From: Verrucomicrobia subdivision 3 bacterium UBA693
GTDB taxonomy: Bacteria; Verrucomicrobiota; Verrucomicrobiia; Limisphaerales; UBA8199
DNA length: 64,000 nt
Direction: 5' to 3'
NCBI GenBank assembly: GCA_002298785.1
Contig: DBMR01000011.1
Span: 84,979-148,978 of the forward strand
In this document: positions 3,001-39,739 of the stretch, piece by piece
Layout of the letters: each line of letters starts with the position of its first letter
How positions within the stretch are numbered: the first letter of the stretch is position 1
Notes under the pieces: model-generated
Told to the model about the DNA's origin: nothing
Databases searched by the model: none
The model's input: only the letters and a program-made list of their open reading frames with translations
Made by a program: the position numbers and the translations under genes

Positions 3001-4203
3001 ACGCACGTCGCCGCCACGGCTCACGGATACCAGGTCACCGCGGACCTTTCCCCGGATGGCTCGCCCACCCAACGGATCGAGATTTGGGGCCAGGGCGAAA
3101 TGCTGGCCGCATTCCCGGGGCATACGGGCACTGTCGCGTCCGTAACGTCCCTCCCGATCGGCGGCGGCAAACTGCGCCTCAATATTGGTCCTCCGATCAA
3201 AGGCTGTCTCTGGAGTGATTTCGCGATCGGAACCGATATCTTCGTCGATGGCATCCATTTTGTCGGCGATCAGATTCGGGTGCTCCAGGAATCCGGGCCG
3301 GGTGCGGATTATCTCTCGGCTTTGAACCTTACGGCGGGCGGTGTGCCGTCGTTCACTATCTCCAGTGAGACCGTGGTTCACGCCCCGGTAAACTTCTCGG
3401 GATTCCTCAACACCCCCACCGGCCAGGCGGATGTTTATGTGGACGCGACCGGCGCGCTGAGCGTTGGCAACATCGGCTCCAGCGGCCAGGACGGGGTCAA
3501 CATCGATTTCGGCCCGTCCTTGAGTTGCGACGTGGTGGTCAAAACCAACAAGTTGCGATTGCGCGAATCCCCTACCCTCTCGCACTTGCGCTTCAGCGCC
3601 TGGGGCAGCGTGAGTGGAAATACCAACCGCCCGCTCGGTTATGTTGACATCCGTTGCCTCCAAACGAACGACCCGTTGTATGAAGTCACCGCCGACTTGA
3701 ACCCCGACGGTTCGCCCACGCAACGAATCGAGGTGTGGAACCAGGGCACGCTGCTCGGCGCCTTCCCGGGCCACAGCGGTGTGGTCGCCACTGTTTCGGC
3801 GTGGCCAACCAGTTTCGGCAAACTCGGACCCAATGCCCTCCGGTTGCCTTGTTTCCGCGGAAATTGGCCCTGGCCAACCCGCATCAATATCAACGGCATC
3901 CAGTTCTTAGCCGATCAACTCCTGATCCTCCAGGAGTCCGGACCGGTCCTGGATTACCTCTCTCGCTTCGCGGTCACCGCGGGTGACGTCGACGGATTCG
4001 AGATCGCCTCGGAAAGTGCCGTCCCACTGCGGACGACCTTAACCACGTCCCTCTCCGGCTCCACGCTGACCATTCAATGGACGGGAGGCGGCGTTTTGCA
4101 GGAGTCGAACGATTTGACGACCTGGACCGATCTGCTGAGCGCCACCAGCCCATACCAGACCGGCACCGGCGCGCCCCGGAAATACTATCGAGTTCGGCAA
4201 TAA
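1..4203 (+). CDS. Large repeat-containing secreted/surface protein of unknown function, 5'-partial
   Basis: The 1398-aa ORF (track 7..4203) has no in-frame stop back to base 1, so it probably continues upstream of the window. It has reiterated ~215-aa units with recurring strings GSSGQDGV, YQVTADLSPDGSPTQR(I/V)E(V/I)W, AAFPGH(S/T)G and FV(N/D)G(I/V)HFVGDQ. The C-terminal tail is TLTIQWTGGGVLQESNDLTTWTDL...RKYYRVRQ. I cannot name a family. Confidence 0.75.
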   Translation, partial: PQVQFQLTGLPNPVTGDRLVIRRDDSFNLNAAAPSEWFVRLQASNIPQIVLTQESARDRFHGLEFNNIGDANVAANAAGVGLSLPPTSDGLAPTGPQGVRATFGGATAFDASFEVIDSRPALPDGTLLQAAYVGAAGTNVGDMAVLQAQAVGSNWVYTTQLPGFSNSTYTIEARLQGKTVARLANQSGGSLGSAARLGAGGYPRPMFDTHYLTDEPPIFIITWNPTPIMITLPGSGGVTMDELRVIPNASTAGVAIRALELRAQGITNLVVTDAAIKVFTNRVPATVLRGASLRPDPGLLTISDLGTNGLDGVRFDVGIAGDTTLALDPIPGPLPAGATLRADVVGSFNGVPNQPLGNVQYTVIDPASPWPLAITADFTAINSPSQLLIVRNNGADVGVFPGHTGPVGNVSSLPRGVGKTFGQTKCIRGRYAANTSFQINGVTLIGDELLILAETTGGHVDYHSSVSLRAAGLTAIGIRGVSITPAPVTFLGQVHTPLGSAALATTTNKPVRLIVNNLGSSGQDGVAISLGHAASAGVSLDPLGLPPIGAFLQFSADGSINGQTNQPLGWLRVTRVSTAPGGYQVTADLSPDGSPTQRVEVWGGGVLLAAFPGHSGVVGTVSSMPIGGGKLRLNIGPPIKGCLWDDFPVGTDMFVNGVHFVGDQLRVLQESGPGADFLSALNVTAGGISSFTINNETIEHAPVRFYGFLNTPTGTGDAFIDATGALTVGNIGSSGQDGVSINLGQALSCEVVVKTNKLRLRESPTLSHLRFSATGSSGGKPNASLGYVDIACVATNPSSYQVTADLTPEGSPTQRIEVWSQGKLQAAFPGHTGPVATVGSWPTSFGKLGVSPTRLPCYRGGWPWPTDIFVNGIHFVGDQILILQETGPTLDFLSSFNVTGANIDGFEIVSESATQAPVVFSGYTNTALGTAMLDTTTGQLVVGNLGSSGQDGVSIALWHGASAGVSFTTPAQDPLGAFVQFNAIGSINGLPNQSLGWLRVTHVAATAHGYQVTADLSPDGSPTQRIEIWGQGEMLAAFPGHTGTVASVTSLPIGGGKLRLNIGPPIKGCLWSDFAIGTDIFVDGIHFVGDQIRVLQESGPGADYLSALNLTAGGVPSFTISSETVVHAPVNFSGFLNTPTGQADVYVDATGALSVGNIGSSGQDGVNIDFGPSLSCDVVVKTNKLRLRESPTLSHLRFSAWGSVSGNTNRPLGYVDIRCLQTNDPLYEVTADLNPDGSPTQRIEVWNQGTLLGAFPGHSGVVATVSAWPTSFGKLGPNALRLPCFRGNWPWPTRININGIQFLADQLLILQESGPVLDYLSRFAVTAGDVDGFEIASESAVPLRTTLTTSLSGSTLTIQWTGGGVLQESNDLTTWTDLLSATSPYQTGTGAPRKYYRVRQ
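1456..4020 (+). repeat. Tandem in-frame duplication (A-B)x2, period ~1.29 kb, inside the giant CDS
   Basis: Units start at the conserved APV(T/R/V/N)F codons: A1 at 1456, B1 at 2101, A2 at 2746, B2 at 3382. The A1-A2 offset is 1290 nt and the B1-B2 offset is 1281 nt. A units carry PIGGGKLRLNIGPPIKGCLW. B units carry VVVKTNKLRLRESPTLSHLRFSA and WPTSFGKLG...LPC(Y/F)RG(G/N)WPWPT. A more degenerate unit lies upstream (about 1000-1455). Confidence 0.8.
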
Positions 4204-4207
4204 TCCC

Positions 4208-4246
4208 AAACCTGGGCGGGCTGGGAACCAGGTTTCTCGGCCCGCC
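4208..4246 (+). terminator. Candidate stem-loop downstream of the giant CDS
   Basis: AAACCTGG (4208-4215) pairs with CCAGGTTT (4228-4235). Alternatively GGCGGGC (4215-4221) pairs with GCCCGCC (4240-4246). It starts 5 nt after the stop codon. There is no clean U-tract. Confidence 0.35.
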
Positions 4247-4283
4247 GACACTCCTTTAGCCGCATGACCCCGCCGTTGGATTT

Positions 4284-6326
4284 ATGAGACTCATGCGCAT
4301 TTCGCTCGCCGTCTGGGTCGCTGCCGGACTCTTCCAGCAGGCCTCTGGCGCCCAAAGCATCGCGAGAGTATGGGACGAGGAAAACCTCGCCGCCATCCGC
4401 ATCGACACCCCAAATCCTCCGGTACAGGCGCGCAACCTGTTCAGTCTCTCGGTCACGATGTACGATGCCTGGGCGGTTTATGACCCAGTGGCGGTCGGCT
4501 ACTTGTTTCACGAGAAACACACCGCCGCGGATCCGGCGGCCGCCCGGCGCGAAGCCATTAGCTTCGCCGCCTACCGCTTGTTAAAAGAGCGCTACGCCTA
4601 TTCCCGGAGCGCCTCCAACACGCTCGCCCTCCTCGACCTGCACCTGGCTGCTTTGGGCTACGATACCAACAATTATTCCCTGGACACCACGACCCCCGCC
4701 GGAGTTGGCAACCGGGTCTATACCACTCTCTCCGCCTACTTTCTCAACGACGGCGCCCGCCAGGCCAACGCCTACGCTGATTGGCCCACCAACCAGGGCG
4801 GATACGTCTCAACCAACCTCGCGTTGATCACCGGGATTCCCGGTAACACCACCGTCCTGGATGTGAATCGCTGGCAGCCACTGGCCATTACCAATGCGGC
4901 CGATCAAAACGGTTTCCCCGCCAGTCTGATTCAGAAATTCCTGGGCGCGCAGTGGCTCGGGGTCCGGCCGTTTGCCTTGTCCCGCGCCACTGCCGACCGG
5001 CCCTGGATCGACCCGGGTCCACAGCCGCGACTCAATGGTTCGGGCGACGCCCGGTTCCGGGCCGAAGTGGTGGAGGTGATTCGACGCAGCAGCGAGCTCG
5101 ATCCGGACGACGGCGTGACGCTCGACATTTCGCCGGGCGCGTTCGGCAATAACTCCCTCGGCGCCAACAACGGCGCGGGGCACACGATCAATCCCGTGAC
5201 CGGCCAGCCGTATGCGCCCAATATCGTGAAGCGCGGCGATTTTGCCCGCGTCCTCGCCGAGTTTTGGGCGGATGGCCCAAGCTCGGAGACGCCTCCCGGT
5301 CACTGGAACGTTATTGCCAACAGCGTCGCGGATAATCCCAACACCGTGAAACGAATAGCCGGCGCCGGGCCGATCGTCGATGATTTGGAGTGGGACGTGA
5401 AAGTTTACTTCGCCTTGAACGCCGCCCTGCACGATGCCGCCTGCGCCGCGTGGTCGGTCAAACGCGTTTACGATGGCGGACGGCCCATCGAATGGATCCG
5501 CTTCATGGGGCAACGCGGTGAATCGACCGACACCAACAGCTATTCCTACAGCACCAACGGACTGCCCCTCGTCACCAACCTCATCGAACTGACCACGGTC
5601 GCCTCGACGTCCACCGGCGGGAGGCACCAGGGTTTGCCCCCGGGCCTGGTGGCCATTTATGCCTGGCCGGGCCAACCCACCAACACCGCGTCCCAACACA
5701 GTGGCGCCAAATGGATGTTGCCTTCGTATTGGTATCCCTACCAAAAAGCCACGTTTGTGACGCCGGCATTCCCGGGCTACATCTCGGGCCACAGCACGTT
5801 CAGTCGTTCCGCCGCTGAGGTGCTGACGGCGATTACCGGTTCGCCCTTTTTCCCCGGGGGCCTGGGCACCTTCACGGCCCCGGCCAATACCTTTCTTAGT
5901 TTCGAGCAAGGCCCAAGCCAGACTGTCCAGTTGCAGTGGGGCACCTATTATGACGCCGCCGATCAGGCCGGGTTGTCACGCCTTTGGGGTGGCATCCATG
6001 TTTCCACCGATGATCTGACCGGGCGCATTACCGGCTCCCAGGCGGGGCTCGGCGCCTGGACGCTGGCGCGGAAATACTTCGATGGCTCGATCGCGAGCAT
6101 GCCGGTAGCTCTAACGATCCGCCCCATGAACGCCAACCAATGCGAGTTGCGATTCAACACTGTCCGCGGCTTCTATTATGGTTTGGAATCGACGCCTGAC
6201 CTGAGCCAGCCATTTATCGCCGACCCCAGCGGGTTGGTTCAGGCCACCGATACGTTCATGGTGAAGACCGATACCGGAATCGGCCCGGGCCGGTTCTTCA
6301 GGATCGTCAGTGTTCCCGCCCCGTAA
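4284..6326 (+). CDS. Secreted PAP2-superfamily / vanadium-dependent haloperoxidase-like protein with FYR-type C-terminal tail
   Basis: 680 aa, ATG at 4284, signal peptide MRLMRISLAVWVAAGLFQQASGA. The three PAP2 motifs occur in order: KRVYDGGRP (K-x6-RP), ISGHS (PSGH-like) and SRLWGGIHVSTD (SR-x5-H-x3-D). The tail is ...FYYGLESTPDLSQPF...GRFFRIVSVPAP. Confidence 0.8.
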   Translation: MRLMRISLAVWVAAGLFQQASGAQSIARVWDEENLAAIRIDTPNPPVQARNLFSLSVTMYDAWAVYDPVAVGYLFHEKHTAADPAAARREAISFAAYRLLKERYAYSRSASNTLALLDLHLAALGYDTNNYSLDTTTPAGVGNRVYTTLSAYFLNDGARQANAYADWPTNQGGYVSTNLALITGIPGNTTVLDVNRWQPLAITNAADQNGFPASLIQKFLGAQWLGVRPFALSRATADRPWIDPGPQPRLNGSGDARFRAEVVEVIRRSSELDPDDGVTLDISPGAFGNNSLGANNGAGHTINPVTGQPYAPNIVKRGDFARVLAEFWADGPSSETPPGHWNVIANSVADNPNTVKRIAGAGPIVDDLEWDVKVYFALNAALHDAACAAWSVKRVYDGGRPIEWIRFMGQRGESTDTNSYSYSTNGLPLVTNLIELTTVASTSTGGRHQGLPPGLVAIYAWPGQPTNTASQHSGAKWMLPSYWYPYQKATFVTPAFPGYISGHSTFSRSAAEVLTAITGSPFFPGGLGTFTAPANTFLSFEQGPSQTVQLQWGTYYDAADQAGLSRLWGGIHVSTDDLTGRITGSQAGLGAWTLARKYFDGSIASMPVALTIRPMNANQCELRFNTVRGFYYGLESTPDLSQPFIADPSGLVQATDTFMVKTDTGIGPGRFFRIVSVPAP

Positions 6327-6427
6327 AGTCGAAACCACTCGACGCCGTGCCCCGACGCGTAGAGCACTGCCCACAAACCGCGCCGCATTGAAATAGAATT
6401 TCGCATGGTGGCACCTTTGCTCAACGT

Positions 6428-6832
6428 TCATTCACCGGCGCGGCTGGGCGCATCCTGTGAGGGACCGGGTTCGCCGGACCGCTCCTCAGGCAACTGGCCC
6501 AAATCGCGCAGGCGATCGTGATAACGAATCAGTAACTCGTGAAACCGAAAATCTCCGCGGAACCCCGCCAGAAACTTGCCCAGGCACAAACCACCCATAA
6601 CGCCGAAACTCGTCCAAACAACGGCCAGTGCCAACCCGTACACGAAACCACTTTTTAACTGCTCGGAATCCAGACCCTCTATCTTTCGAATACCAACCAC
6701 GGTGAAGTAGCCGCATAGACCGAGAAATACCGCGGCATAAAGGAGCATCCCGAGCCGCATCTTGCCCTGTGCACCCACAATCCGCCGTGATTTCTCAACG
6801 AGCTGCGCATCGGACTCTGTGATCGGTTGCAT
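6428..6832 (-). CDS. Hypothetical small membrane protein
   Basis: 134 aa with two hydrophobic helices (LGMLLYAAVFLGLCGYFTVVGI and YGLALAVVWTSFGVMGGLCLG). It lies 18 bp downstream of the DUF805 gene on the same strand. No recognisable family. Confidence 0.5.
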   Translation of the reverse strand: MQPITESDAQLVEKSRRIVGAQGKMRLGMLLYAAVFLGLCGYFTVVGIRKIEGLDSEQLKSGFVYGLALAVVWTSFGVMGGLCLGKFLAGFRGDFRFHELLIRYHDRLRDLGQLPEERSGEPGPSQDAPSRAGE

Positions 6833-6850
6833 GGCGTCTAAGGCGAACGA

Positions 6851-9395: not shown

Positions 9396-9399
9396 TTTC

Positions 9400-10320: not shown

Positions 10321-13263
10321 ATGAACCGATTAACCAGAGCCCTCGTTATGGGCATCGCGATCCTCGCCGGCGGATGTTCGGCGGCGATCACCACCAGCAA
10401 CCTCCGTTGCGAATACCTGACCAACCCTCTCGGAATCGACGCCCCCAACCCGCGCTTAAGCTGGGTCCTGGATTCCAGCCGCCGGGGCGAGCGACAGACG
10501 GCGTACCAGGTCCTGGTGGCCTCCTCCGCAAAACTCCTGGACAAGGACACGGGCGACCTCTGGGACAGCGGCCGTGTAGCTTCTGACGCTTCCGCGCAGG
10601 TGGTTTACGCCGGCAAACCGCTGACGTCCCGCCAGCCGGCTTTCTGGAAAGTGCGGGTCTGGGACGCCGCCGGTAAACCGGCCCGGTGGAGCAAAGTCGC
10701 GAAGTGGGAGATGGGCCTGCTGGCCGCCGCTGACTGGAAAGCCCAGTGGATCATCGTGCCGCCGCCAACCAATGCCGCCGGCGAGACGTTGGTGATTCGA
10801 CGTGCGATCTACGAAGCGATCGAAGGCGGCGGAAAAGCCGACGTGACCGCGGCCCTGAGCCGGCATGTCGCCAAGGGCAGCCTTAACGTCACCGTGAATA
10901 ACCAGACCCTCGGGACCGATCCGGCGGTGAACAAGGTGAAGCGATTGCGGGTGGAATACGAATTGGGGGGACGTCAGTTGACCAAGGAGATTAACGAAAG
11001 CTCGACCCTTGTGCTGCCCGAAGTTCCGCCCGGGCTGCCGTATCTTCGCAAAGCGTTTGATTTGAACCGCCCCGTGCAACGCGCGGTGCTTTATGCCAGC
11101 GCCCTGGGACTCTATGAGGTGGCCATCAACGGACACCGGGTGGGTGACCATGTGCTGGCGCCCGACTGGACCGACTACCGCAGGCGCGTCCGTTACCAGG
11201 CTTATGATGTGACCGCCCTGTTCAATCGCGGTGCCAATGTGATTTGCGGCCAACTCGCCAACGGATGGTACAGCGGCCACATCGGCAACGGCGCCAACCA
11301 GTTCTTCGGCAAGGTGCCCGCGTTCCTGGCCCAGCTCGAAATCACCCACCCGGATGGCACGACGGAACAGATCGCGACCGACACCTCCTGGACCACGCAT
11401 CGTGGCCCGACTCTCACCTCCGATTTCATGCTGGGCGAGGATTACGATGCACGGCTCGAGGTACGAAATGCCGACAAGCCAGGCCCGGTGGAAGGCCCGT
11501 GGGCTCCAGTGGCAGTGCGACAGGAACCCACTCCGCCACTTGAAGCACAGGTCATGGAACCCGTGCGCGCCATCCGCGAACTCAAACCCAAGTCAGTGTC
11601 CGAACCGCGTCCCGGCTTCTGGGTTTATGACCTGGGCCAAAACATGGTCGGAGTGGTGCGGTTGAAAGTCTCCGCGCCCGCCGGCACCCGGGTGACGCTG
11701 CGCCACGCGGAAATGCTCAACGCCAATGGCACCATTTACACCACCAACCTGCGCGGAGCACCCTCCGTGGACCATTACATCTGCAAAGGCGGAGGCGTTG
11801 AAATCTGGCAGCCGCGTTTCACGTTCCACGGTTTTCGTTATGTGGAAATCACCGGGCTCAGCGGGAAACCCAGTATTGACCTCGTGACCGGCGTGGTGCT
11901 GACCACCGACACCACCCGTGCCGGCGAGTTCGCCTGTTCCGATCCCCGCATAAATCAACTCCAATCCAACATCGAGTGGGGGCAGCGCGGCAACTACCTG
12001 AGCGTGCCCACCGATTGTCCCCAACGCGATGAGCGCCTCGGCTGGATGGGTGATGCCCAGGTGTTTATTCGCACCGCCACCTACAACGCCGATGTCGCGG
12101 CGTTCTTCACCAAATGGCTCGTGGATGTGGACGACGGCCAATCGCCGGAAGGTTCCTTCAGCGACGTGAATCCGAACACCATGGGTTGCGGCAGCGTTCC
12201 CGCCTGGGGCGACGCCGGCGTCATTTGTCCCTGGACCATTTACCAGGTGTATAGCGACCAGCGCATTCTGGAACGTCACCTGCCGGCCATGATCAAGTGG
12301 ATCGAGTATCTGCGCGCGCACAGCGATGGGCTCATCCGGGTCAAGGATCGCGGCAACGACTACGGCGACTGGCTCTCCATCAACGCCGACACCCCCAAAG
12401 ACATGCTGGGCACCGCTTACTTTGCCTACTCGACTCACCTGGTTGCCCGCTCCTGCGCCGCTCTCGGGCGCTCCGCCGAGGCGGCCAAATACGAGCAACT
12501 GTTTCAGGACATCAAACAGGCCTTCAACCAGCGCTTTGTGAGCGCCGATGGGCGCATCAAGGGCAATACTCAAAGCGCGTACGCCATGGCGCTAAAATTC
12601 AAATTGCTGCCCGAAGCGCTGCGGGGTAAAGCCGCGCAATACCTCGAAGACGATATCAAAGCCAAAGGCTGGCACCTATCCACCGGGTTTGTTGGGGTTA
12701 GTTACCTGCTGCCGGTCCTCACCCAGGCGGGCAAGGCGGACGCCGCTTACCGTTTGTTGCTGCAGGACACCTTCCCGTCGTGGCTGTTCTCGGTGAAACA
12801 CGGAGCGACCACCATTTGGGAGCGCTGGGACGGTTGGACCCCGGACAAAGGCTTCCAGGATCCAGGCATGAACTCCTTCAACCATTACTCGCTGGGCTCC
12901 TGCGGTGAATACTTGTTCGGCGGCATTGGCGGCATTCGTCCCGCGTCTCCCGGGTTCAAAACAATCGCGATTGAACCGGTGATCCGGGACGGACTGACCT
13001 GGGCCAAAGCCAAGTACACCTCGATCAATGGCCTCATCGCCACCTCCTGGAAACGCGACGGCGATCAACTGAGCCTGGAGGTCACCATACCGGCGAATAC
13101 CACCGCCACCGTCCGTATTCCCGCGCGTGACCTCGCCGGGATCACGGAAAGCGGTAAACCTACAGCGAAGGCCAACGGGGTCAGGGTTTTGGGCCAGGAG
13201 AATGGCATAGCGGCCTTTGAAGTGGGCTCCGGGACCTATAAATTCGTCTCCAAGTTGCCTTAA
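10321..13263 (+). CDS. GH78 alpha-L-rhamnosidase
   Basis: 980 aa. The N-terminus LRCEYLTNPLGIDAPNPRLSWVL...RQTAYQVLVASS...LWDSGRVASD...FWKVRVWD is typical of GH78. The catalytic-region string PTDCPQRDERLGWMGDAQVF is present. The lipoprotein-like signal is ILAGGCS. Confidence 0.9.
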   Translation: MNRLTRALVMGIAILAGGCSAAITTSNLRCEYLTNPLGIDAPNPRLSWVLDSSRRGERQTAYQVLVASSAKLLDKDTGDLWDSGRVASDASAQVVYAGKPLTSRQPAFWKVRVWDAAGKPARWSKVAKWEMGLLAAADWKAQWIIVPPPTNAAGETLVIRRAIYEAIEGGGKADVTAALSRHVAKGSLNVTVNNQTLGTDPAVNKVKRLRVEYELGGRQLTKEINESSTLVLPEVPPGLPYLRKAFDLNRPVQRAVLYASALGLYEVAINGHRVGDHVLAPDWTDYRRRVRYQAYDVTALFNRGANVICGQLANGWYSGHIGNGANQFFGKVPAFLAQLEITHPDGTTEQIATDTSWTTHRGPTLTSDFMLGEDYDARLEVRNADKPGPVEGPWAPVAVRQEPTPPLEAQVMEPVRAIRELKPKSVSEPRPGFWVYDLGQNMVGVVRLKVSAPAGTRVTLRHAEMLNANGTIYTTNLRGAPSVDHYICKGGGVEIWQPRFTFHGFRYVEITGLSGKPSIDLVTGVVLTTDTTRAGEFACSDPRINQLQSNIEWGQRGNYLSVPTDCPQRDERLGWMGDAQVFIRTATYNADVAAFFTKWLVDVDDGQSPEGSFSDVNPNTMGCGSVPAWGDAGVICPWTIYQVYSDQRILERHLPAMIKWIEYLRAHSDGLIRVKDRGNDYGDWLSINADTPKDMLGTAYFAYSTHLVARSCAALGRSAEAAKYEQLFQDIKQAFNQRFVSADGRIKGNTQSAYAMALKFKLLPEALRGKAAQYLEDDIKAKGWHLSTGFVGVSYLLPVLTQAGKADAAYRLLLQDTFPSWLFSVKHGATTIWERWDGWTPDKGFQDPGMNSFNHYSLGSCGEYLFGGIGGIRPASPGFKTIAIEPVIRDGLTWAKAKYTSINGLIATSWKRDGDQLSLEVTIPANTTATVRIPARDLAGITESGKPTAKANGVRVLGQENGIAAFEVGSGTYKFVSKLP

Positions 13264-13291
13264 CGGCGACCGGTTCTAATCACTCGCAAAG

Positions 13292-21675: not shown

Positions 21676-21955
21676 AATGATTTTACGGAGTTGCAGACAT
21701 GGGTATATGCAGTCGTTTGGCTTAAAGCCAAAACTGGTCGTCAACTGGCAGGTAAGACACAGTTTTCAATTGGTTGCGCTTTCCATGGAACACAGCAGCG
21801 CTCAGAGTTTTCAATGCACTCGCGAGATCGTGTATTCGCACCTAAGCTAGCTTACGGGCCTGTAAAGGGAAATTCCCCGATTAAGGTGATGCGGTCATCA
21901 CCGAAACAGGGGAGGGTAGGTTTGGCCGCATCCTGCGGCAGTTCAGTGCGGTCGG

Positions 21956-24524: not shown

Positions 24525-25400
24525 TCAAGGATCAATTTGGGCTTCCTGTGCGGCATTCACCGTCCAGGAAATCTCCGGGTGCGGTTGGTTGTCGCTATTC
24601 CAGCGTGAGCGCCACATCGCATTGTTCGGGTCAATCAGCTCTTTCCGCCGGGCGCCCTCGGCGTGGCCGTCGCAAAACATCAAATCCGTGCGCCGGTTGT
24701 GGCGGTTCGAAGGCCATTCCGATGGCGTCTTGGGATCCATGTTGCCGTCAAAGCTCCCGTCCGGTTTGCTGTCACCCAGCATGATCATGTTGACCGGGCT
24801 TTTTACCAGGTTTTCCTTAACTTCTCCCACCACGTTCACATCCCCTCCCAATCCCAGTTGCGGCGCGCCGGGCTCCTTCAAGCCCCAGTCATTGTAACCA
24901 TACGAGAAGCGGGTGCGGGAACTGATGCCATAAGCGTCACGTCCGCCTGTGGGAAAGGTGGCTCCCAGCGAGTCGTTGCCGTTGGTGTTCCAAATCGAAT
25001 TCGCGTTGGCCGCCGGACAATAAAACACGGAGCGGTTCGTGCCCATCTGGCTAAACAAACGCACCGGCCAGACATAATAAAAACTGTCGTTCAACCACAG
25101 GCAACCGGGATAGGCCTTGTACTCGTTCACATACATGATCGTGGCGATGCCGATCTGCCGGAGATTGTTCAGGCAAGCCGTCTGTTTGGCTTTGGTTTTG
25201 GCTTTCGCCAGCGCCGGCAGCAGCATCGACGCCAAAATCGCGATGATGGCAATCACCACCAACAACTCGATCAATGTGAATCCGCGGCGCCACCGACGCG
25301 GGCGCGCTTGAGGTGTTTTCACCGGCCGGGGGGACACCGAAACTGCACGGTTCACCGCTCGCTGGTGACCGTCCGAAAAGGAATGGAATGAAACATCCAT
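24525..25400 (-). CDS. Prepilin-type N-terminal cleavage/methylation domain protein of the H-X9-DG (DUF1559-like) class
   Basis: [31 protein letters not shown] is a class III signal with a hydrophobic helix. The C-terminal [13 protein letters not shown] fits H-x9-DG. Its stop is 13 nt upstream of the next gene start at 24511. The start could instead be the GTG that gives [17 protein letters not shown] (about 25325). Confidence 0.85.
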
Positions 25401-28600: not shown

Positions 28601-30201
28601 GCCCCATTGAGGGACAACATTCCGTTGCCGTTCTTGATCAAACCGCCCGAGCTTACATTCGCCAGAACCGGGATGCCCAGAGTCGCCGGAGTCGAGGCTC
28701 CGCCGTTAATCAGCGTCACCGCCGGCGCAGCGCTGTATCCGTATCCGGAGCAGGTCACCAAGATGTTCGTCAGTTTGCCCGCGACCGGATCAATCTGCGC
28801 CAGAGCCGTGGCTCCGCCACCGGCACCGCTCGGGTCGATCTGCACAATCGGCGGGGCCATGTAACCCGCGCCGCCATCGCTGACGGGGATGCTCACCACG
28901 CCCTGGCCTGACGGGGCAATCAGAGCTTGCGAAATGGTCACGTCGTAACCCGCGGTGTCCAGGGTCAGGTTCCCAGCATAGATCACCGCTTCCGCCATGA
29001 CGCCGGGCAGGAACGACGGGTCGTTATTCTTCGCCTGCACCATGCCGCCGTTAAAGTTCAGATAAGCCGTGCCACTCCACTTATCAATCTTCGGAACCTT
29101 CAGGAGGCCGCCGTTGAGGTTGAGATAGGACGTGCCATTGGCCATCATCAGGGGCATCGCCGTCTCCAGCACGCCCGTTCCGGAAACGGTGACTTCGCCG
29201 CGACCATTTTCACCTACCATATAGCGGGTGCCGGTGCCGATGTGCTGGAAAAGACCGCCAGAAATCCAGGTAATGCCGAGACTGCCAGCATACCGAGCAG
29301 TGTCGCACCAGCCAGACTGGATGTTCGTGCCGCCGCTTTGATACAGCAGGCCCTTGCCATAGCGACCGACCTGGAAGTTGAACGGGCAGTTCAGCGTCCC
29401 AGCGGAAAGGCTGTAAAACCCAAACGCGTCCACGGAAGCCTGCGCATCGCCGCCGATGGTCCACTCGTTGGCATTGCCGCCGGTGCCGTTAATGGTCCCG
29501 CCCGTCTGCCACAGAGCGCCAATGGCGGTGTCATTCTTTCCCACGAAGAAGCGCGAGACGTTTAACGTCGCATTGTCTTTGATGTATCCGAAACCGCGGC
29601 CGCTGCCATAATCGCCAATGTTCCAATCCTGGGCCGCGAGCGTATAAACAGCATTGTCCTGCAGAGTCAACGAGCCGATGCCGCCGTTGCCGTTGCCAAT
29701 GCCATTCCAGCCGCCAGTGATATTGATCCTGGCGTTGTCTTTTACGAAAACCTGTCCAGTGCAGAAGGTGCCGTCGCCAACGATAAAACCGTCGCCAGTC
29801 TTGTTGATAATGCCATTGCCGGCAACGATGAGGGTCGAAAGTGGTGTGTTACCGCCATTGCCCGTGCGTCCGACCACCAGCCAATTATCCACCGGCAGAG
29901 TTCCACCGTTGGTGACGATGATGGTGCCAGCGACTCCGCTGTTACCGGCCCAGGCTTCGCTCACGTGGGGCACGGTGTTGGAAATGATGGCGGTGCCGCC
30001 ATTCCCAATATTGCCGATCGCCCAACCGCCGGTGTTATCCGGCAGGACGCCACCGGCCCAATTGGCGGGATCATTCCACCAACCAGTACCAGTGTTGCTC
30101 CAGTCGACAGCGCGCGCACCGGGCGCCATTGCCACACAAGCGCACGCCACGGCGGTCAACGCCAGCGGCTTGTTGAATCTTGTTTGTTTCGATTTTTTCA
30201 T
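25645..30201 (-). CDS. Giant autotransporter-associated beta-strand repeat (PATR) surface protein with FYR-type tail
   Basis: 1518 aa, signal peptide MKKSKQTRFNKPLALTAVACACVAMAPGARA. PATR units recur (GNGMLSLNGANTYTGATVVNAGKVQL, GTGTLTLDTVNDYTGPTKIMGGTVVV, GTGTLALMGTNTYTGATLVSAGTLGGSG). The tail is GGNLIMTGTGGAPGTGYTWLTSV...PVRFYKMRVP. Confidence 0.85.
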   Translation of the reverse strand: MKKSKQTRFNKPLALTAVACACVAMAPGARAVDWSNTGTGWWNDPANWAGGVLPDNTGGWAIGNIGNGGTAIISNTVPHVSEAWAGNSGVAGTIIVTNGGTLPVDNWLVVGRTGNGGNTPLSTLIVAGNGIINKTGDGFIVGDGTFCTGQVFVKDNARINITGGWNGIGNGNGGIGSLTLQDNAVYTLAAQDWNIGDYGSGRGFGYIKDNATLNVSRFFVGKNDTAIGALWQTGGTINGTGGNANEWTIGGDAQASVDAFGFYSLSAGTLNCPFNFQVGRYGKGLLYQSGGTNIQSGWCDTARYAGSLGITWISGGLFQHIGTGTRYMVGENGRGEVTVSGTGVLETAMPLMMANGTSYLNLNGGLLKVPKIDKWSGTAYLNFNGGMVQAKNNDPSFLPGVMAEAVIYAGNLTLDTAGYDVTISQALIAPSGQGVVSIPVSDGGAGYMAPPIVQIDPSGAGGGATALAQIDPVAGKLTNILVTCSGYGYSAAPAVTLINGGASTPATLGIPVLANVSSGGLIKNGNGMLSLNGANTYTGATVVNAGKVQLTTAVAGASAYTVANGASLGLLVLSANAQAGLTSLSLDTATLDLDLGNYGNPTAAPINLAGALSVNGPIAVNIADALPQVGEFPLIKYGSRTGSGSFTIASIPSGVVATIVTNPAGSIDLKITAVSAPRWDGQAGGTWDIGLTTNWVELSTGLPAFFAQGNAVLFDDAALGTTSVNLGTTVNPAKVTVNNSVVNYTISGTGKISGAASLTKHGTGTLTLDTVNDYTGPTKIMGGTVVVTNLANGGSASALGSASSAPANLVLANGSLSYGGPAVAVNRGYSVQDTNCSINTVSDLGLGGLVTATTGSSFVKSGPAKLTHFGAGVKELSGGGFPGYNILAGTVVFDGTGVGQTNHNQNEFWVGSTVDAGASLILSNTVLNIDSWFAVGRGNGTVGNVSTATLYNSVLRSGSASLGYANNILGNSALQTLALNGTSSFTNNGDMNLGESGGSTSTILLNGNSSMYSGWRIHLGWHTGANAIMTLADSSSLTVNAWMSVGNEDGTGTLTVKDNSSLWVLWDMNVTDVGTGQGTMNLQNNATATANNFFIGKGAGSTGTMNQTGGSAIGRYPDGNEFQIGFHGAGTWNLSAGTIVAPGHWFVIGRYTDGPGILNVTGGTITHGNLNTGKLFRVGEEGQGTLNLSGTGSIVTGCDAVTMGNNATANGVVNLDGGTFQARRFTGGPGSSTFNFNGGVLRAGPNANPDFMNGLGTAFVLARGATIDTGTNHIAIGQSLLDGGAGGGLTKLGTGTLALMGTNTYTGATLVSAGTLGGSGVIAGGSVTVATGATLAPGASIGALSISNNLTLNGTTTMEISKDGGVVASDLVVVGGNIAFGGTLNVVLVGTNALAVNDTFNLFDWGTQSGSFTTTNLPSGYTWDLSKLAVDGTIRVSGIVLPPPVVRPPHIVGGNLIMTGTGGAPGTGYTWLTSVNVAAPAANWTTNSTGVFDAAGAFSNAIPINPAEPVRFYKMRVP

Positions 30202-30511: not shown

Positions 30512-31582
30512 TCACCTCGCCGGGGATGGGGGTGAGGTTGCTGGTTCCTCCACCAGGTGGCTTAAAGGTATGGGTAACCCAAAGTTGGGCGTCCCGTCCG
30601 CATTCCACGTAAACCTTTGCACCCGGGTCGTCCTCCCACGGTAAGCATATTCGGAACTGGTCTTGGCGTGATACACGATCCAGTCCGAGCCATCCCCGGC
30701 GCGGAAGAAGCCATTATGCCCAGGGCCGAACACCCCGTTAGCGTCGTTGCGCTCAAAAACCGGGGCCGGATGCTGGTGCCAGGATTTCGGATCGAGGACG
30801 TCCGCAGTGTCCTCAGCGATGAGCATGCCGAGTTTGTAATCCGGTTTGCCGGTGTCGCAGGCGGAGTAAACCAGGAACAGCCGCCCGTTTCGTTGCAAGA
30901 CCACCGGCCCCTCCCGGACCTCGGCACAACCAAAACCCGAGGCTGGCAACACCACGCCGTTCCCGCTCAGGGTCCAGGGATTCGCCAATCGCGCGATGGT
31001 CAGCACATGCCCCGGACGGGCTGCCCACAGGAAATACCACGATCCATCCGGCTTGGAGAACACCGAACCGTCGATGGCATAAGCGTCGTTGGTGGGGTTC
31101 ACCAGTCGTGCTTTGTAGGCATACGGTCCGAGCGGGTCGCGACCGGCGCTTTCCAGCACGTGCATGCGATGTCGGTCGTCGTTATTGTCGCTCGAGGTGG
31201 CGGTGTAATACAGGTACCAGCGATTGCTGAAGTAATGAAATTCCGGCGCCCACATGCCGCGCGACCGGCTCGGATCGAAGTCCTGCCAGACCGTTACTGG
31301 TGAGACCGCTTTCAAACCGCCGATCGTCGGCGCTTTCCACATGCGAATGGCATCGCCCTGGGTAGTGGTGAGGTAGTAATTCCCGTCAAAATATTCCAGC
31401 CACGGATCGGGGCCGGGGTTGATCGGATTCTGGAATTTGCCCGAGTTGACTTGAGCCATAGCCATGCCCAGGGTCAGGCTCACCCACATCAACACCAGGC
31501 TCACCCAACAAAAAAAATGTTCAGCCACCACCAGGCTCCCTGCGAGGCCCCCGGTGCGTTTAAGAAAATCACGTCGTTTCAT
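30512..31582 (-). CDS. GH43-family glycoside hydrolase (arabinofuranosidase/arabinanase/xylosidase type)
   Basis: 356 aa with a Tat-like start MKRRDFLKRTGG. GH43 five-bladed-propeller strings are NPGPDPWLEYFDGNYYLTTT, MWAPEFHYFSNRWYLYYTA, AIDGSVF and EGPVVLQRNGRLFLVYSA. Confidence 0.85.
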   Translation of the reverse strand: MKRRDFLKRTGGLAGSLVVAEHFFCWVSLVLMWVSLTLGMAMAQVNSGKFQNPINPGPDPWLEYFDGNYYLTTTQGDAIRMWKAPTIGGLKAVSPVTVWQDFDPSRSRGMWAPEFHYFSNRWYLYYTATSSDNNDDRHRMHVLESAGRDPLGPYAYKARLVNPTNDAYAIDGSVFSKPDGSWYFLWAARPGHVLTIARLANPWTLSGNGVVLPASGFGCAEVREGPVVLQRNGRLFLVYSACDTGKPDYKLGMLIAEDTADVLDPKSWHQHPAPVFERNDANGVFGPGHNGFFRAGDGSDWIVYHAKTSSEYAYRGRTTRVQRFTWNADGTPNFGLPIPLSHLVEEPATSPPSPAR

Positions 31583-33857: not shown

Positions 33858-33892
33858 GGGCGAGACTAAATCCACCTTCAGAACTGACTGTT

Positions 33893-36800: not shown

Positions 36801-37639
36801 GCTTGAGTTTGAATGCCAGCGGCAACCTGCTGGCCGGCACAGGAAATCCGGACGTGAGCATCGCCTCGAGTAGCGCAACTTTTGCGGATGGCCAACCCCA
36901 CATCGTGACCTTCAAACGCACCCGGGCGACCGGAGCGCTGGCCCTATTTGTGGATGGATCCGCCCAAGGCACCGCGTCCGCCGGCAACCAGTCGCTGACC
37001 GCCCCTGCTCAGTTGGTGTTGGGCGCACAGCAGACCCTGATCAACTACCTGACGGGCGATATCGCTGAGGTCAAAATATACGAGGCAGCTCTCGGAGATG
37101 CGGACCGGGTTGCCGAGGAAACAGCGCTCGCCTGCAAATACAAACTGGGAGGGGGCGCCGCACCCGCAACGCCTCGAGGTTTGTCCGCCACCGCTAATAA
37201 CCGCCAGGTCTTCGTGACCTGGATTCCCGTGACAGGCGCCACCGGGTACAAGGTCAATTGGTCCGTCAACCTCGCCGGCCCTTATACGCAACTAATCGGG
37301 AATCTGACCACGAACAGCTATTCACACACCACCGCCCTGAATGGACAAACCAATTACTATCGGGTGAGCGCTTACAGTGCTTGCGGGCTTGGCACCAGTT
37401 CAGCTCCGGTGGCAGCCTGGCTGCCCCTGCCGACCCTGGGAGTCAGCCGCGAAAATAGTTTCTTTACCCTCACCTGGCCCGATTGGGCCAGTGATTGGCT
37501 GCTGTGGTCGGCGACCAATCCAACCCCACCGATTTTTTGGCAGCCAATCACTAATGCCGCCACAATTACGAATGGTCAGTTCAACCTCACTCTGCCCTTC
37601 CGGTGGAGCGTTGAGTTATTCCGATTAGCCAGCCCTTGA
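33893..37639 (+). CDS. Multidomain GH2 glycosidase: GH2 core, ~135-aa beta-sandwich module, Fn3, LamG, Fn3, FYR-type tail
   Basis: I prefer the start at MNAKNRPSRLFLT (ATG 33893), because the track start at 33401 overlaps the upstream gene. GH2 strings are YPRPQMVRTDWLSLNGVWQF, WYRRLFTVP, LHLDAVDWESEVFINGQSVGLHRGGYDP, NHPSIIMWVIFNESQG and VCGEFGG. The beta-sandwich module is at nt 35735-36151. The Fn3 segments are NYKLKRSTTSGGPYT and TGYKVNWSVNLAGPYT. The LamG segment is INGLPAVHFNATNSNSLAF...GDIAEVKIYEAAL. The tail is ...LLWSATNPTPPIFWQPI...SVELFRLASP. Confidence 0.85.
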   Translation: MNAKNRPSRLFLTCARRCCFLALGILLAGPCRMAGWQMQYAPIMTDWARQVDTNSPLPEYPRPQMVRTDWLSLNGVWQFQGGNTNDPVPVNQALAGDILVPFPMESALSGVARYYPHSWYRRLFTVPAGWNGRRILLHLDAVDWESEVFINGQSVGLHRGGYDPAMYDITPQLRGSGPQEMIVRVYDPTDAAGMPRGKQTLYPGGIMYTSCSGIWQPVWLEPVPISSVAGLKLVPDIDTQRLRVTTTISGPTNGLTIHATARVGTNLIGSISGAPGAELSLPVPNPTLWCPTNPFLYDLEIALSNGLTRVDGVASYFGMRKISLGTTNGFVKLLLNNQFVFQFGPLDQGFWPDGIYTAPTDDALKSDIEQEKILGYNMVRKHIKVERSRWYYWADKLGLLVWQDMPSANSYTSNPQPLDVPQFATELTRMVQNHWNHPSIIMWVIFNESQGQHDTAALVQQVKTLDPSRLVNEASGGSYYGSGDVLDVHSYPDPAYPTSGTQAAVCGEFGGVGLGITNHTWAPGWGYISAVNGDDLAAKFEGFCQQLSDFVQHHGLSAAVYTEITDVEIELNGFLTYDRKVRKPDADRIRQAIASASAPITLTTVVPTSQAAGQTWKYTTTTPAANWPATGFNDANWSTGTAGFGANNPPNTSGLIRTTWNTADIWLRRTFNPGNLSSQQISNLFFVVYHDEDAEFYINGVLAVTAPGYTTGYGLSALSPAGRAAVLPNAVNVLAVHCHQTGGGQYIDVGLTVRDSSVMPQPLPLPPAPSNLRASSALTGVSLAWNSSPNASNYKLKRSTTSGGPYTNTIVLSPVNCATDTAVSPGNTYYYVVSATNSSGESDNSNEVGLTIPALPPPLPKAWFKADALSGLGNGAPIAIWPDASGNAFNATQTNPGMRPTYASSAINGLPAVHFNATNSNSLAFARPVQDDFTIFCVYRSAQGLGTGTQFYQGAGLVNGEVPSVDNDFGLSLNASGNLLAGTGNPDVSIASSSATFADGQPHIVTFKRTRATGALALFVDGSAQGTASAGNQSLTAPAQLVLGAQQTLINYLTGDIAEVKIYEAALGDADRVAEETALACKYKLGGGAAPATPRGLSATANNRQVFVTWIPVTGATGYKVNWSVNLAGPYTQLIGNLTTNSYSHTTALNGQTNYYRVSAYSACGLGTSSAPVAAWLPLPTLGVSRENSFFTLTWPDWASDWLLWSATNPTPPIFWQPITNAATITNGQFNLTLPFRWSVELFRLASP

Positions 37640-37666
37640 AGCGCTCGCGGTCGCTTCACTCGTAAC

Positions 37667-39739
37667 TCACCGATAAAAGCGGGTGGCCGCATCGGCCGGT
37701 CCCGAGTCTATCCAGAAGAATGGCATTGCCGGCGCGTTGGTGCGCAACAACGTCACCCACGCGCCGATACGGCCCAGGTTGGTGGAAACCTGGATGACAT
37801 AGTCCGGCCCGTAATCTCCATCGATCCGCAGTCCGATCCCGGCATCGGAAATCACGGGCGTATTGAGTTGGGGTTGCGACAGGTTGGTGACGGTAACGAC
37901 GAACCGTTGCGTGGCACTTAAGCTGGGCGACCCGCTGTCTGCCACCACCACGGCCACGGCATTGACGGTGTTCGCCTGAACCACCGCCGGCCGCCACTTG
38001 AACACACCATTCGTGCCATCCAGAAAGGCTCCGGTTGGCGCAGTCAAAAGCGAAAAAGTCAGAGTTTGTCCAGCGTCAGGATCGGAGGCGGTATTCGTAA
38101 CCGCCAGGGACTGACCGGCGCCAATCGAGAAATCCGGCACTGGCGCTAATGTGGGCGGACGGTTCGCCAGGGCGGCGACTTCCACGCTGGTGAGCGCGCG
38201 TCCATACACGCGCGCATCCCGAATAGTGCCCTTAAAATATTCGTCGCCACCCGGAAAATCCGCACCGAGATAAAGCGGTTCGTTGACGACACCAAAGCGC
38301 AGCGTGACGAACGGCTGGTTGGCATCCAACTGGCCATTGAGATAGAAGCGTAACCGGATACCGTCATAGGTCACAGCCGCGTGGCACCATTGCCCGACGC
38401 TCAGTTTCCCCGAGGAATTCCAGGAACCACCGCCAACGCTCCCGGCGGGATTGCCCCAGTTCGCGGTGAAACGCAACGCCCCATCGCTCCAGGTTTCCAG
38501 GGCGAAGGCCGTGCTGTTGCTGCCTTTGGTGATCAGGCCGGCCCAATCCGTGAAAACGTCCGCCCGGACCCAGGCCGCCAGGGTTACCGCGTGTTGCACC
38601 TCGTTGCCCAGCCCTGGACCAGCGTCGACATAGGCGTTGGTGCCGTTGAATCTCAACCCGGGATTCGCCCAAACGGCCCCCCCGTTCAAGGTGGCGAGCC
38701 GACCACACATGATGCTCGCGGTGGTGGTGCCGGTCGTTTGCTCCAGCGAAAATCGCGCGACGAGGAAGTCAGCGTCGTCGGTCGCCGCAGAACCGATGGG
38801 CACCGGCGTGCCGAAATCCGGAAGGTTGGCCACGGTCCACGCGACGCGTTGCGCCCGAATGCGCCGCAGCCCGCCGCAGCCTTCTCCCGAGTTGTTGTTG
38901 GCATGGTAGATATTCCACCACTGTCCGGCGACGTCTTGCAGCACACAATGGTGTCCGGGGCCGTAAGCACCGGGTTGCTTGGTGAACACCGGGCCCGATT
39001 TGGTCCACGAAGCGCGATCCAAAAGATTCGCCCCGGTCAACGTGAGCAACCCCAAGGTGTAATCGTCCGTCCAGCAACCGCTGGCCGAATACGCGATGAA
39101 CAGTTGGCCGTTGCGCTGGAACGCCCAGGGACCTTCGTTGACCTTGGGGTCGCCGATCCGCTCCCAGGGTTGAGTGGGTTCAGAAAGCAGCACCAGTGGC
39201 CCAGCCAAGGTATAGGGATTGCTCATGGGCGCAATGTACAGGTTCTGCGTCGAGCCCTCGTTCCCCGAGCAGATAAAATAAAGTTTGCCGTCGCCGGCGG
39301 TGAACACGCTCCCGTCAATATTCCAAAACGTGTTAAACAAAATGCCGCGATCGGTATAGGGCCCGAGGGCACTGGTGCCCTGGCTTTCAGCAACAAACAC
39401 CCGATGCCCAGCACCCGGATTGCGGCTGTAATAGAGATACCAGCGGTTGTTGAGCCAATGCAATTCCGGGGCCCAGACGTCCGAGTAACCGGGCGCGTAA
39501 ATCGAGTAATCCGAAGCCGTCACCAACCCGCCAATCGAGGCAGATCGGCGCAGATGAATCACGCAGCCATCGCTCTGGACGAGGTTGAATAGACCGTCTT
39601 TCAGAGTCACCGCGGGATCTTGCCCCTGCATGAGGGAGTTCGTGAAACAAGCCCCCCACAGGTTGGCCCCAGCGCCACACACGCACGCGAGCACTGCTAC
39701 CGCTCCCAGGGAGCGCCATGGCCGGGTGAAGGGTCTCAT
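37667..39739 (-). CDS. GH43-family hydrolase fused to LamG-like and cadherin/Ig-like domains with FYR-type tail
   Basis: I prefer the start at MRPFTRPWRSLGAVAVLACVCGAGA (ATG 39739), which overlaps the upstream stop as ATGA. GH43 strings are GQDPAVTLKDGLFNLV, VWAPELHWLNNRWYLYYS, NIDGSVF and NEGPWAFQRNGQLFIAYSA. The LamG segment is LRFNGTNAYVDAG...GTIRDARVYGRAL. The cadherin-like segment is SDPDAGQTLTFSLLTAPTGAFLDGTNGVFKW. The tail is ...YVIQVSTNLGRIGAWVTL...ATRFYR. Confidence 0.85.
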   Translation of the reverse strand: MRPFTRPWRSLGAVAVLACVCGAGANLWGACFTNSLMQGQDPAVTLKDGLFNLVQSDGCVIHLRRSASIGGLVTASDYSIYAPGYSDVWAPELHWLNNRWYLYYSRNPGAGHRVFVAESQGTSALGPYTDRGILFNTFWNIDGSVFTAGDGKLYFICSGNEGSTQNLYIAPMSNPYTLAGPLVLLSEPTQPWERIGDPKVNEGPWAFQRNGQLFIAYSASGCWTDDYTLGLLTLTGANLLDRASWTKSGPVFTKQPGAYGPGHHCVLQDVAGQWWNIYHANNNSGEGCGGLRRIRAQRVAWTVANLPDFGTPVPIGSAATDDADFLVARFSLEQTTGTTTASIMCGRLATLNGGAVWANPGLRFNGTNAYVDAGPGLGNEVQHAVTLAAWVRADVFTDWAGLITKGSNSTAFALETWSDGALRFTANWGNPAGSVGGGSWNSSGKLSVGQWCHAAVTYDGIRLRFYLNGQLDANQPFVTLRFGVVNEPLYLGADFPGGDEYFKGTIRDARVYGRALTSVEVAALANRPPTLAPVPDFSIGAGQSLAVTNTASDPDAGQTLTFSLLTAPTGAFLDGTNGVFKWRPAVVQANTVNAVAVVVADSGSPSLSATQRFVVTVTNLSQPQLNTPVISDAGIGLRIDGDYGPDYVIQVSTNLGRIGAWVTLLRTNAPAMPFFWIDSGPADAATRFYR

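Follow-up and report, generated by a model that had tools for sequence, protein, structure and literature searches.

A divergent fibronectin type III domain at the C-terminus of unrelated exported proteins in Verrucomicrobiota

Why should exported proteins of unrelated architecture end in the same way? The question is raised by a 64,000-nucleotide stretch of the genome of Verrucomicrobia subdivision 3 bacterium UBA693 (assembly GCA_002298785.1, contig DBMR01000011.1, positions 84,979 to 148,978; hereafter the window). An initial annotation, made from the letters alone, had noted in it seven secreted proteins whose last 60 to 75 residues seemed to follow one pattern closing on an aromatic-aromatic-basic motif, and had proposed these tails as a candidate sorting or anchoring domain. 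The seven are a giant protein, a PAP2-like protein, a five-module protein, an autotransporter-associated beta-strand repeat (PATR) protein, and long members of the glycoside hydrolase (GH) families GH78, GH2 and GH43. Translation shows a tail in each of them where one had been reported. We argue here that the tail is very probably a new domain family derived from the fibronectin type III (fn3) fold and with a strong preference for the C-terminus, and we weigh what such a domain may do on so many different proteins.

One domain at the ends of unrelated proteins

The seven carriers have unrelated architectures, as judged from their Pfam and NCBIfam domains. Signal peptides are seen on the six in which this can be checked, the N-terminus of the giant protein lying outside the window; in both respects the carriers are as first described. 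Their terminal motif is far more frequent than chance would allow. In its strict form, [FY][FY][RKQ] within the last 11 residues, it occurs in 6 of the 24 plausible proteins of the window, against an expectation of about 0.004 per protein, and in 1 of the 218 other window open reading frame (ORF) segments of at least 100 aa. The initial annotation had placed it 0 to 6 residues from the stop codon in all seven proteins. It does stand within the last 11 residues of six, but the GH2 protein ends in LFR instead, and in the PAP2-like protein seven residues follow the arginine.

Among the window tails themselves, all-against-all BLAST gave a single strong pair, the five-module and PATR tails (57% identity over 76 aa, E-value (E) 9e-33), which bears out the paralogy claimed for these two; the other pairs were weak, and in a leave-one-out test hidden Markov models (HMMs) of the other window tails failed each time to find the one left out. 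The window tails alone therefore cannot prove common ancestry, and external sequences were needed. Searching a database with the seven tails brought up 44 short C-terminal fragments, which fall into two subtypes, A ('SGGNLILTGTGG..YTWLTTTNL..W..GAFSNAIP..FFRLRxP*') and B ('LILTWPTN..GYTLQSTTNL..WTTN..VVVNGQNTVTNP..QFYRLSQ*'). When profiles built without any window sequence (external-only profiles) were scanned against the six-frame segments of the window (Z = 896), the PATR, five-module, GH78, GH2, GH43 and PAP2-like tails were the top six of the 896, each covering most or all of the model and each at a C-terminus. By profile homology, six exported proteins of the window, and perhaps a seventh, end in copies of one domain. 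That the tail is one real, reusable module and not a chance motif is thereby a supported conclusion.

The PATR tail (25648–25869, minus strand; gene 25645–30201) belongs to a subtype reading 'SGGNLI(L/M)TGTGG...YTWLT...W...GAFSNAIP...FYKMRVP'. It was matched at E 5.3e-19 over model positions 4–68, ending two residues before the stop, and PATR repeats (TIGR02601) were found in the body of the protein. The same subtype closes the Ig-rich five-module protein (tail 17797–18018, minus strand, matched at E 2.7e-17; ORF 17794–21744, with a probable ATG at about 21675), in which Ig_3 and I-set domains lie upstream of the tail. The tail of the long GH78 alpha-L-rhamnosidase (13370–13588, minus strand; gene 13367–17617; '...GYTLQSTTNLASPIW...KYFRLVGN') was matched at E 7.6e-10 and was recovered independently by the subtype-B (1e-8) and subtype-A (3.7e-4) profiles; the GH78 domains of this protein stop at residue 1124 of 1416.

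The two other glycoside hydrolase genes converge, with 27 bp between their stop codons. The GH2-LamG-fn3 tail (37421–37636, plus strand; '...FFTLTWPDW...W...FNLTLP...ELFRLASP') was matched at E 1.4e-9 over model positions 1–68 and is immediately preceded by a canonical Pfam fn3 domain (residues 1257–1338). The true start of its gene, which stops at 37639, is the ATG at 33893 (MNAKNRPSRLFLTCARRCCFLALGILLAGP), and the signal peptide stands at that start. The GH43-LamG-He_PIG tail (37670–37876, minus strand; gene 37667 to about 39739; '...GPDYVIQVSTNL...W...TRFYR*') was found at E 3e-3, improving to 4.8e-4 after iteration, and gives E 1e-13 to 1e-18 against the corresponding tails of three GH43 orthologues. 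It ends in ...TRFYR*, 4–5 residues before the orthologue end ...KFYRVRLAP*, and its last strand is therefore clipped.

The remaining two tails are more divergent. That of the PAP2-like protein, which is better described as DUF6851/VCPO-like (6108–6323, plus strand; gene 4284–6326; '...CELRFN...YYGLESTPDL...GRFFRIVSVPAP'), was matched at E 3.6e-2, or 2.1e-3 after iteration, over model positions 3–67 and at the C-terminus; on profile evidence it is a probable member of the family. The giant protein, described at first as a repeat protein, occupies 7–4203 of the window on the plus strand (1398 residues, the ORF extending past the window start), and no Pfam or NCBIfam model matched it over those residues. 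Its tail (4027–4200; 'STLTIQWTGGGVLQESNDLTTW...RKYYRVRQ') scores 8.5–9.9 bits (E 0.06–0.16), with the N-terminal half alone aligning (model positions 2–45). Twelve of 2000 shuffles of its own residues scored as well, and a word-index search returned no homologue of it; it does fit the register of a 45-member family alignment if one strand is deleted. We regard it, from these alignments, as at best a shortened, marginal member, and the original claim of one module common to all seven proteins holds for the other six.

Directly upstream of two of the tails there is a further shared motif, at 18019–18200 in the five-module gene ('VKFDFTRQNSSLDNGYSGYAEIVLQGVNL') and at 13589–13760 in the long GH78 gene ('VRYLRWDFSAPQQNGGVGYTELVALGKA'), both on the minus strand. 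It recurs before subtype-A tails in three database fragments (P0001, P0002 and P0005; 'VKFDFT...GYSGYAEIVLQG') and probably forms the end strands of a second beta-sandwich module, likewise uncatalogued, that accompanies the tail.

Fold, naming and taxonomic range

The tail domain is about 68 aa long. For the PATR tail, AlphaFold2 with a 40-sequence alignment predicts a beta-sandwich (predicted local distance difference test, pLDDT, 95.5; predicted template modelling score, pTM, 0.79) with six main strands, at residues 8–10, 13–19, 26–32, 43–49, 56–61 and 70–74; the GH78 tail is likewise predicted to be a beta-sandwich (pLDDT 77). A comparison by hhalign of the 45-member family alignment with 11 fn3 domains, all of which match PF00041, gave a 95.8% probability and E 7.3e-9 over 65 columns. 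Family columns 5–72 map onto fn3 columns 8–76 of 95, and the FYRL of the tail falls on YYYRV of the fn3 F strand, the 'tyrosine corner'. The relationship is also visible from the other side, as genuine fn3 arrays are picked up by the family profile at 14–20 bits and iterated family HMMs reach the Pfam fn3 domain of the GH2 protein at 1e-5. The features held in common are an 'L-x-W' B strand, a 'G-Y-x-L' C strand, a conserved W and a Y-[FY]-R-[VL] F strand, within a profile match over strands A to F and a sandwich in the models.

The tail differs from fn3 most clearly at its end. It is about 68 aa long against about 90, and the fn3 profile runs some 19 columns past it, leaving the FG loop and G strand unmatched. 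Exactly 2–3 residues follow [FY][FY]R[LVI] in 230 of 247 terminal copies; because the chain ends 2–3 residues past the F-strand motif, the domain would have six main strands and no counterpart of the fn3 G strand. From profile alignment and structure prediction, the tail is best described as a divergent fn3 beta-sandwich that stops after strand F. It differs further in its position, being nearly always last in its protein where fn3 domains are as a rule internal, and in its host range, the credibly labelled genomes that carry it being those of Verrucomicrobiota. The Pfam fn3 model itself, PF00041, matches none of the seven window tails and none of 45 diverse members, the latter even at E ≤ 10.

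Comparison with solved structures gave less. Foldseek searches of the Protein Data Bank with both models returned generic Ig, fn3 and CBM-like sandwiches, none of them below E 0.04 and none significant. The fn3 matches of the GH78 model, with Tie1 FN3 and Tencon among the top ones, had E 0.18 and a TM-score of about 0.5. A profile search of solved structures with a broad alignment returned nothing significant. With the 45-member alignment it gave a partial match to CBM32 at E 3.9e-4 and one to a contactin fn3 domain at E 0.09.

The first of these matches raises the possibility that the tail is a small beta-sandwich carbohydrate-binding module (CBM) that directs enzymes of polysaccharide degradation to a glycan. 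The best solved-structure match is indeed to the CBM32 discoidin domain of a Paenibacillus glucanase/chitosanase (2rv9, 4zxe; 56 columns). CBM21- and CBM48-type sandwiches appear among the non-significant Foldseek matches, terminal and tandem placement is common for CBMs, and four of the seven window carriers are glycoside hydrolases or lie within a cluster of carbohydrate-active enzymes (CAZymes). Yet the match spans the middle 57 of 136 residues (53–109) of a domain twice the size of the tail, and rests on an 'L-x-W...Y-x-[IL]-Q-x-S-x-D...W' motif. In view of this difference in size, we judge the match to be a motif-level likeness; 2 of 11 bona fide fn3 domains also weakly match the F5_F8_type_C model. 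No CBM model in Pfam was matched by the 45 members, no conserved aromatic platform was identified outside the core motif, and the carriers include PATR, GloVer, leucine-rich repeat (LRR), lipase, M23 peptidase, SpoIID and DUF6851 proteins, which have no common glycan substrate. Glycan binding as the shared role of the tail thus appears quite improbable. Membership of CBM32 is rejected on the same partial match, and there was no full-length match to a known CBM family.

The initial annotation had suggested a check against named families, and no model matched. Scans of Pfam and NCBIfam gave no family match for the seven window tails (T9SS models at E ≤ 1; T9SS being the type IX secretion system), and at E ≤ 10 no family was matched by more than one of the 45 diverse members. 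At the level of sequence models, these scans rule out identity with the C-terminal domain (CTD) of T9SS cargo, CHU_C, PEP-CTERM, Big_x and Pfam fn3. Full-text literature searches, and a check of 10.1101/2023.06.07.544157, found no description of the tail domain, and two database alignment searches returned short C-terminal fragments only, named 'hypothetical protein' or 'TIGR03803 family'. A characterised carbohydrate-binding or Ig-like domain that also occurs internally had been named at the outset as the finding that would speak against a sorting or anchoring role. The tail is a divergent fn3 and does occur internally, so that this objection applies in part; it does not belong to a family already characterised.

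The family is nonetheless large. Searched exhaustively with the profile, a library of 1.84 billion representative proteins gave 11,844 matches at E ≤ 1e-3, of which 1,153 reach E ≤ 1e-10. When 185,579 species genomes were pattern-scanned three times, once per subtype, the scans yielded 59, 14 and 50 loci, nearly all of them labelled Verrucomicrobiota, Verrucomicrobiia, Limisphaerales, Pedosphaera or subdivision 3. These scans are biased to close relatives; within them every credibly labelled genome match is to Verrucomicrobiota, mainly subdivision 3, and among such matches the family is restricted to this phylum. A few loci carry odd labels ('Bifidobacteriaceae', Binatia, Acidoferrum), which are most likely binning or labelling errors. 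Nine come from third-party-annotation metagenome-assembled genomes (MAGs) titled 'Bifidobacteriaceae' or 'Bifidobacterium' (L001, L039, L049, L054, L057, L084, L085, L092 and L108); these bear typical Verrucomicrobiota genes (GloVer, tail domains, GH43 orthologues), and their labels look wrong. The window has a G+C content of about 60%, and its GH43 protein is 57–64% identical to orthologues from MAGs that bear the labels Limisphaerales and Verrucomicrobia subdivision 3. Judged by the labels of these relatives, its host belongs to subdivision 3 of the Verrucomicrobiota (Limisphaerales, Pedosphaerales) and is not a member of the Bacteroidota, in keeping with the initial impression. The suggestion of a proteome-wide system is borne out in so far as the tail is widespread, in 11,844 representative clusters, but no candidate sorting machinery, and no secretin, sortase-like or T9SS gene (the T9SS core being SprA, PorV, PorU and GldK/L/M/N), was found within the 64-kb window.

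Position, cargo and candidate function

Position and copy number were examined in 129 loci totalling 979 kb. These contain 154 ORFs with the tail domain, 152 of which have their stop codon inside the locus; in 146 of the 152 (96%) the domain ends no more than 10 aa from the stop. Among 149 top representatives of the profile search, it ends within four residues of the C-terminus in 139. Thirty of the domain-bearing ORFs in the loci had not been selected by the search, or about one unselected copy per 33 kb. Tandem arrays of 2–8 copies that reach the C-terminus are present in 41 of the 149 top representatives, a sample in which multi-copy proteins are over-represented, since the scores of their copies are summed; in the less biased locus sample, two-copy carriers number 2 of 154. 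The extremes are a protein consisting of a signal peptide, GloVer repeats and eight tail copies (P0045) and another with a signal peptide, six tail copies and nothing else (P0046). Internal array copies score 30–60 bits and keep FYRL or YYQL. A few further copies are not terminal; for example, in L034:2883-4034 the domain follows the signal peptide and precedes a C-terminal region that is FGE-sulfatase-like by eye, and in L050:3062-5272 a signal peptide and repeats are followed by a mid-protein domain and a C-terminal NHL-like region. The initial description of the tail as strictly C-terminal is therefore wrong, as these arrays and non-terminal copies attest. Terminal copies differ slightly from internal ones: the third motif position is R in 95% of the former and 83% of the latter, and the motif is followed by a basic residue in 33% and 11%, respectively.

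The cargo is equally varied. Across 34 carriers in the loci, 51 Pfam families were found, including LRR_5, Laminin_G_3, GH16, GH30, GH43, GH2, lipase and M23 peptidase, together with SpoIID, PKD, Ig, FG-GAP, fn3 and beta-propellers. By a crude rule, signal peptides are present on 43 of 67 locus carriers, compared with 41 of 162 control ORFs. Proteins with the GloVer repeat (TIGR03803), classed as 'choice-of-anchor' in NCBIfam, belong to the cargo as well; 29 of the 33 GloVer proteins in the loci end in the tail, which thus occupies the slot of an anchor or sorting signal. In other lineages, an anchor or sorting signal is placed in that slot of choice-of-anchor proteins.

The tail also occurs as an ORF of its own. 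This 74-aa tail-only ORF (P0207) is found in identical form on at least 24 contigs. In L078 (3700-4225), and with the same layout in L077 and L079, it comes 131 bp after the end of a 957-aa NHL-repeat gene that has no tail, and between the two there is an out-of-frame remnant of a second tail end ('...NLFFRLSQ*'). The LRR_5 gene upstream at the L078 site ends in a normal tail. The layout suggests rearrangement of the 3' end, decay, or a cassette-like turnover of tails.

Taken together with the fn3 homology, such observations could mean that the tail is an ordinary structural fn3 variant, an end-cap or spacer with no common function, its C-terminal bias having arisen from 3'-end module shuffling and inheritance in large paralogue families. 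The orphan tail ORF and the out-of-frame remnant past a tail-less NHL gene are signs of just such rearrangement, and many carriers are GloVer paralogues. Spacers of the fn3, Ig, PKD and He_PIG types abound in the same proteins, tandem arrays are typical for spacers, and the conserved positions look structural. The tails also evolve faster than their carriers, the GH43 tail having 34–39% identity to those of its orthologues against 57–64% for the best whole-protein segment. Generic spacers, however, sit between domains, whereas this one is last in 96% of cases and on passengers of at least 51 families; in the GH2 protein it differs from the canonical fn3 domain just before it; and 11,844 clusters have the same truncated ending, which implies selection on the ending itself. 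We consider a role as a mere structural cap somewhat unlikely.

A constant ending is what would be expected of an export or sorting signal, in which a terminal beta-sandwich is recognised by an outer-membrane translocon or an attachment enzyme of Verrucomicrobiota, an analogue of the T9SS CTD that might be removed or covalently linked after transport. The resemblance to the T9SS domains (type A, TIGR04183/PF18962 Por_Secre_tail; type B, CHU_C) is considerable, for these too are C-terminal Ig-like sandwiches of about 70–80 aa on signal-peptide proteins of diverse function, including multimodular glycoside hydrolases, LRR/BspA-like proteins and PKD/Ig-rich adhesins. Size, fold class, extreme C-terminal position and cargo range (multimodular glycoside hydrolases, LRR_5/BspA-type, PKD, Ig, fn3 and FG-GAP proteins) all agree, and the Sec signal peptide of T9SS cargo is present on six of the six checkable window carriers. 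The ending in 230 of 247 copies, the differences between terminal and internal copies at the third motif position and the following basic residue, the filling of the 'anchor' slot of GloVer proteins, and the presence of long tail-bearing paralogues beside compact tail-less ones of the same enzyme families point the same way.

Several observations are difficult to reconcile with such a signal. The internal array copies are fully homologous to the terminal copy and keep FYRL, and the L034 and L050 copies sit just after the signal peptide or in mid-protein. The domain therefore needs neither a free C-terminus nor uniqueness, and arrays and internal copies are contrary to what is expected of a cleaved sorting tag; T9SS CTDs, by comparison, occur as one copy at the extreme C-terminus. 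The differences between terminal and internal copies are slight. No match to TIGR04183, PF18962 or CHU_C/TIGR04131 was found among the 45 members at E ≤ 10, no T9SS CTD was among the best 50 structural matches listed per model, the T9SS domain has seven strands where the tail is predicted to have six, and the host phylum is not known to possess a T9SS. An export signal of this kind is accordingly an unlikely explanation of the tail as a whole. The original notion of a sorting or anchoring domain survives in that the tail is a real and strongly C-terminal module; its sorting half is partly contradicted by the arrays and internal copies.

The tail resembles PEP-CTERM and LPXTG sequences in standing at the extreme C-terminus of exported proteins. 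It is distinct from them, as the initial annotation had held, in being a folded domain without a signature motif, hydrophobic helix and basic cluster. A regular-expression scan found no PEP-CTERM-like ending in the window, and TIGR02595 matched neither the 7 tails nor the 45 members. One PEP-CTERM-like ORF is present in the loci, in L034 (Limisphaerales), on a protein other than the tail carrier.

In its positional statistics, the tail appears by analogy most similar to dockerins, surface-layer homology (SLH) domains and terminal CBMs, which are likewise promiscuous, mostly C-terminal on unrelated secreted enzymes, sometimes duplicated and occasionally internal; these modules serve to attach their carriers non-covalently to a common partner. 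The likeness is one of usage only, as fold and sequence are unrelated, the dockerin being a calcium-binding helical EF-hand pair and SLH domains also helical; the tail is a member of neither the T9SS CTD family nor the dockerins, and belongs by descent to the fn3 superfamily. Usage of this kind, with most copies at the ends of varied carriers, some in repeats and a few internal, fits docking or retention better than it fits a processed sorting signal, which is unique and strictly terminal. We therefore tentatively favour, as a plausible candidate function suggested by these analogies, a common module for docking to, or retention at, the cell surface. After export, the tail would bind one shared partner, perhaps a component of the cell envelope or matrix, or perhaps another tail copy, possibly through the edge of the F strand, which would lie exposed where the G strand is missing. 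In this way the tail would hold large extracellular enzymes and adhesin-like proteins at the cell surface with their working domains facing outward, and tandem C-terminal arrays may raise avidity or serve as scaffolds. Such usage would be that of dockerin, SLH and terminal-CBM modules, unlike that of a cleaved export tag present once per protein.

The enzymes of the window lend support to a role connected with localisation. Besides the long GH78, GH2 and GH43 carriers, the window encodes compact paralogues that have no tail: a GH78 at 10321–13263 (plus strand), a GH43 at 30512–31582 (minus strand), and two GH2 proteins at 42120–44468 and 44455–46827 (both minus strand). The compact versions have signal peptides, that of the short GH78 being lipoprotein-like ('ILAGGC'), and the long versions nearby carry, in addition to the tail, LamG, Ig or fn3 modules. 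The arrangement resembles a split in which some enzymes are periplasmic or lipid-anchored and others are at the surface or extracellular.

Docking has its own difficulties. The most conserved residues (W, TNL, G-Y-x-L and FYRL) look like parts of the core or fold and so do not mark out a conserved binding surface. The absence of the G strand is itself deduced from profile alignment and two AlphaFold models, and six-strand sandwiches can be stable on their own. With tandem copies in 2 of 154 locus carriers, avidity is not a general rule. The C-terminal bias could stem in part from descent within expanded paralogue families such as GloVer, and the 96% terminal position and fixed ending of 2–3 residues would suit a recognition signal equally well.

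A more specific proposal, which we consider doubtful, is that Verrucomicrobiota have an as yet undescribed pathway for surface display or outer-membrane sorting, in which the tail is the element of recognition and docking. By analogy, a G-less fn3 domain would be the counterpart, in the Planctomycetota-Verrucomicrobiota-Chlamydiota (PVC) group, of the T9SS CTD. Its F-strand edge (FYRLxx-COOH) would be completed in trans by a strand of a dedicated outer-membrane or surface receptor, that is, by beta-strand complementation, and dozens to hundreds of enzymes and adhesins per genome would thereby be marked for export or attachment.

Genomic setting and significance

The window as a whole is rich in CAZymes, with two GH78, three GH2, two GH43 and two GH127-like enzymes, one GtaA/DUF4964-type hydrolase and one NPCBM/melibiase-like protein, and it also encodes two two-component systems. 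A prepilin-type N-methylation/DUF1559 gene (24525–25400, minus strand) follows the PATR gene, which is on that strand too, after a gap of 245 bp. The DUF1559 family is expanded in Planctomycetota and Verrucomicrobiota. Prepilin-like ORFs are present in only 7 of 79 related loci, DUF1559 is not a recurrent neighbour of tail genes, and no link to the tail is therefore indicated. Unrelated to the tails is a cluster at 56282–62145 that resembles a lipid-export system, comprising an MMPL transporter fused to a lipid-A-type acyltransferase (56282–59686), a LolA-like protein (59692–60375) and an AMP-binding enzyme (60868–62145).

Subdivision 3 Verrucomicrobiota (Limisphaerales, Pedosphaerales) are abundant degraders of polysaccharides in soil, peat and freshwater. 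To our knowledge, the route by which their large enzymes reach the cell surface, or stay on it, is not established, and we know of no secretion signal for their CAZymes. The tail provides a simple sequence marker that sets apart a large subset of their exported proteins, including the long, module-rich versions of GH78, GH2 and GH43 enzymes. If it is indeed an fn3 domain truncated after strand F, it would represent an unusual structural solution for a terminal module. A model of the family would improve the annotation of regions that are now blank or 'hypothetical', would offer a testable predictor of extracellular and surface enzymes in metagenomes, and would give a handle for finding the partner or machinery with which the tail may interact. 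It thereby brings into focus the question of how these abundant polysaccharide degraders display their enzymes.

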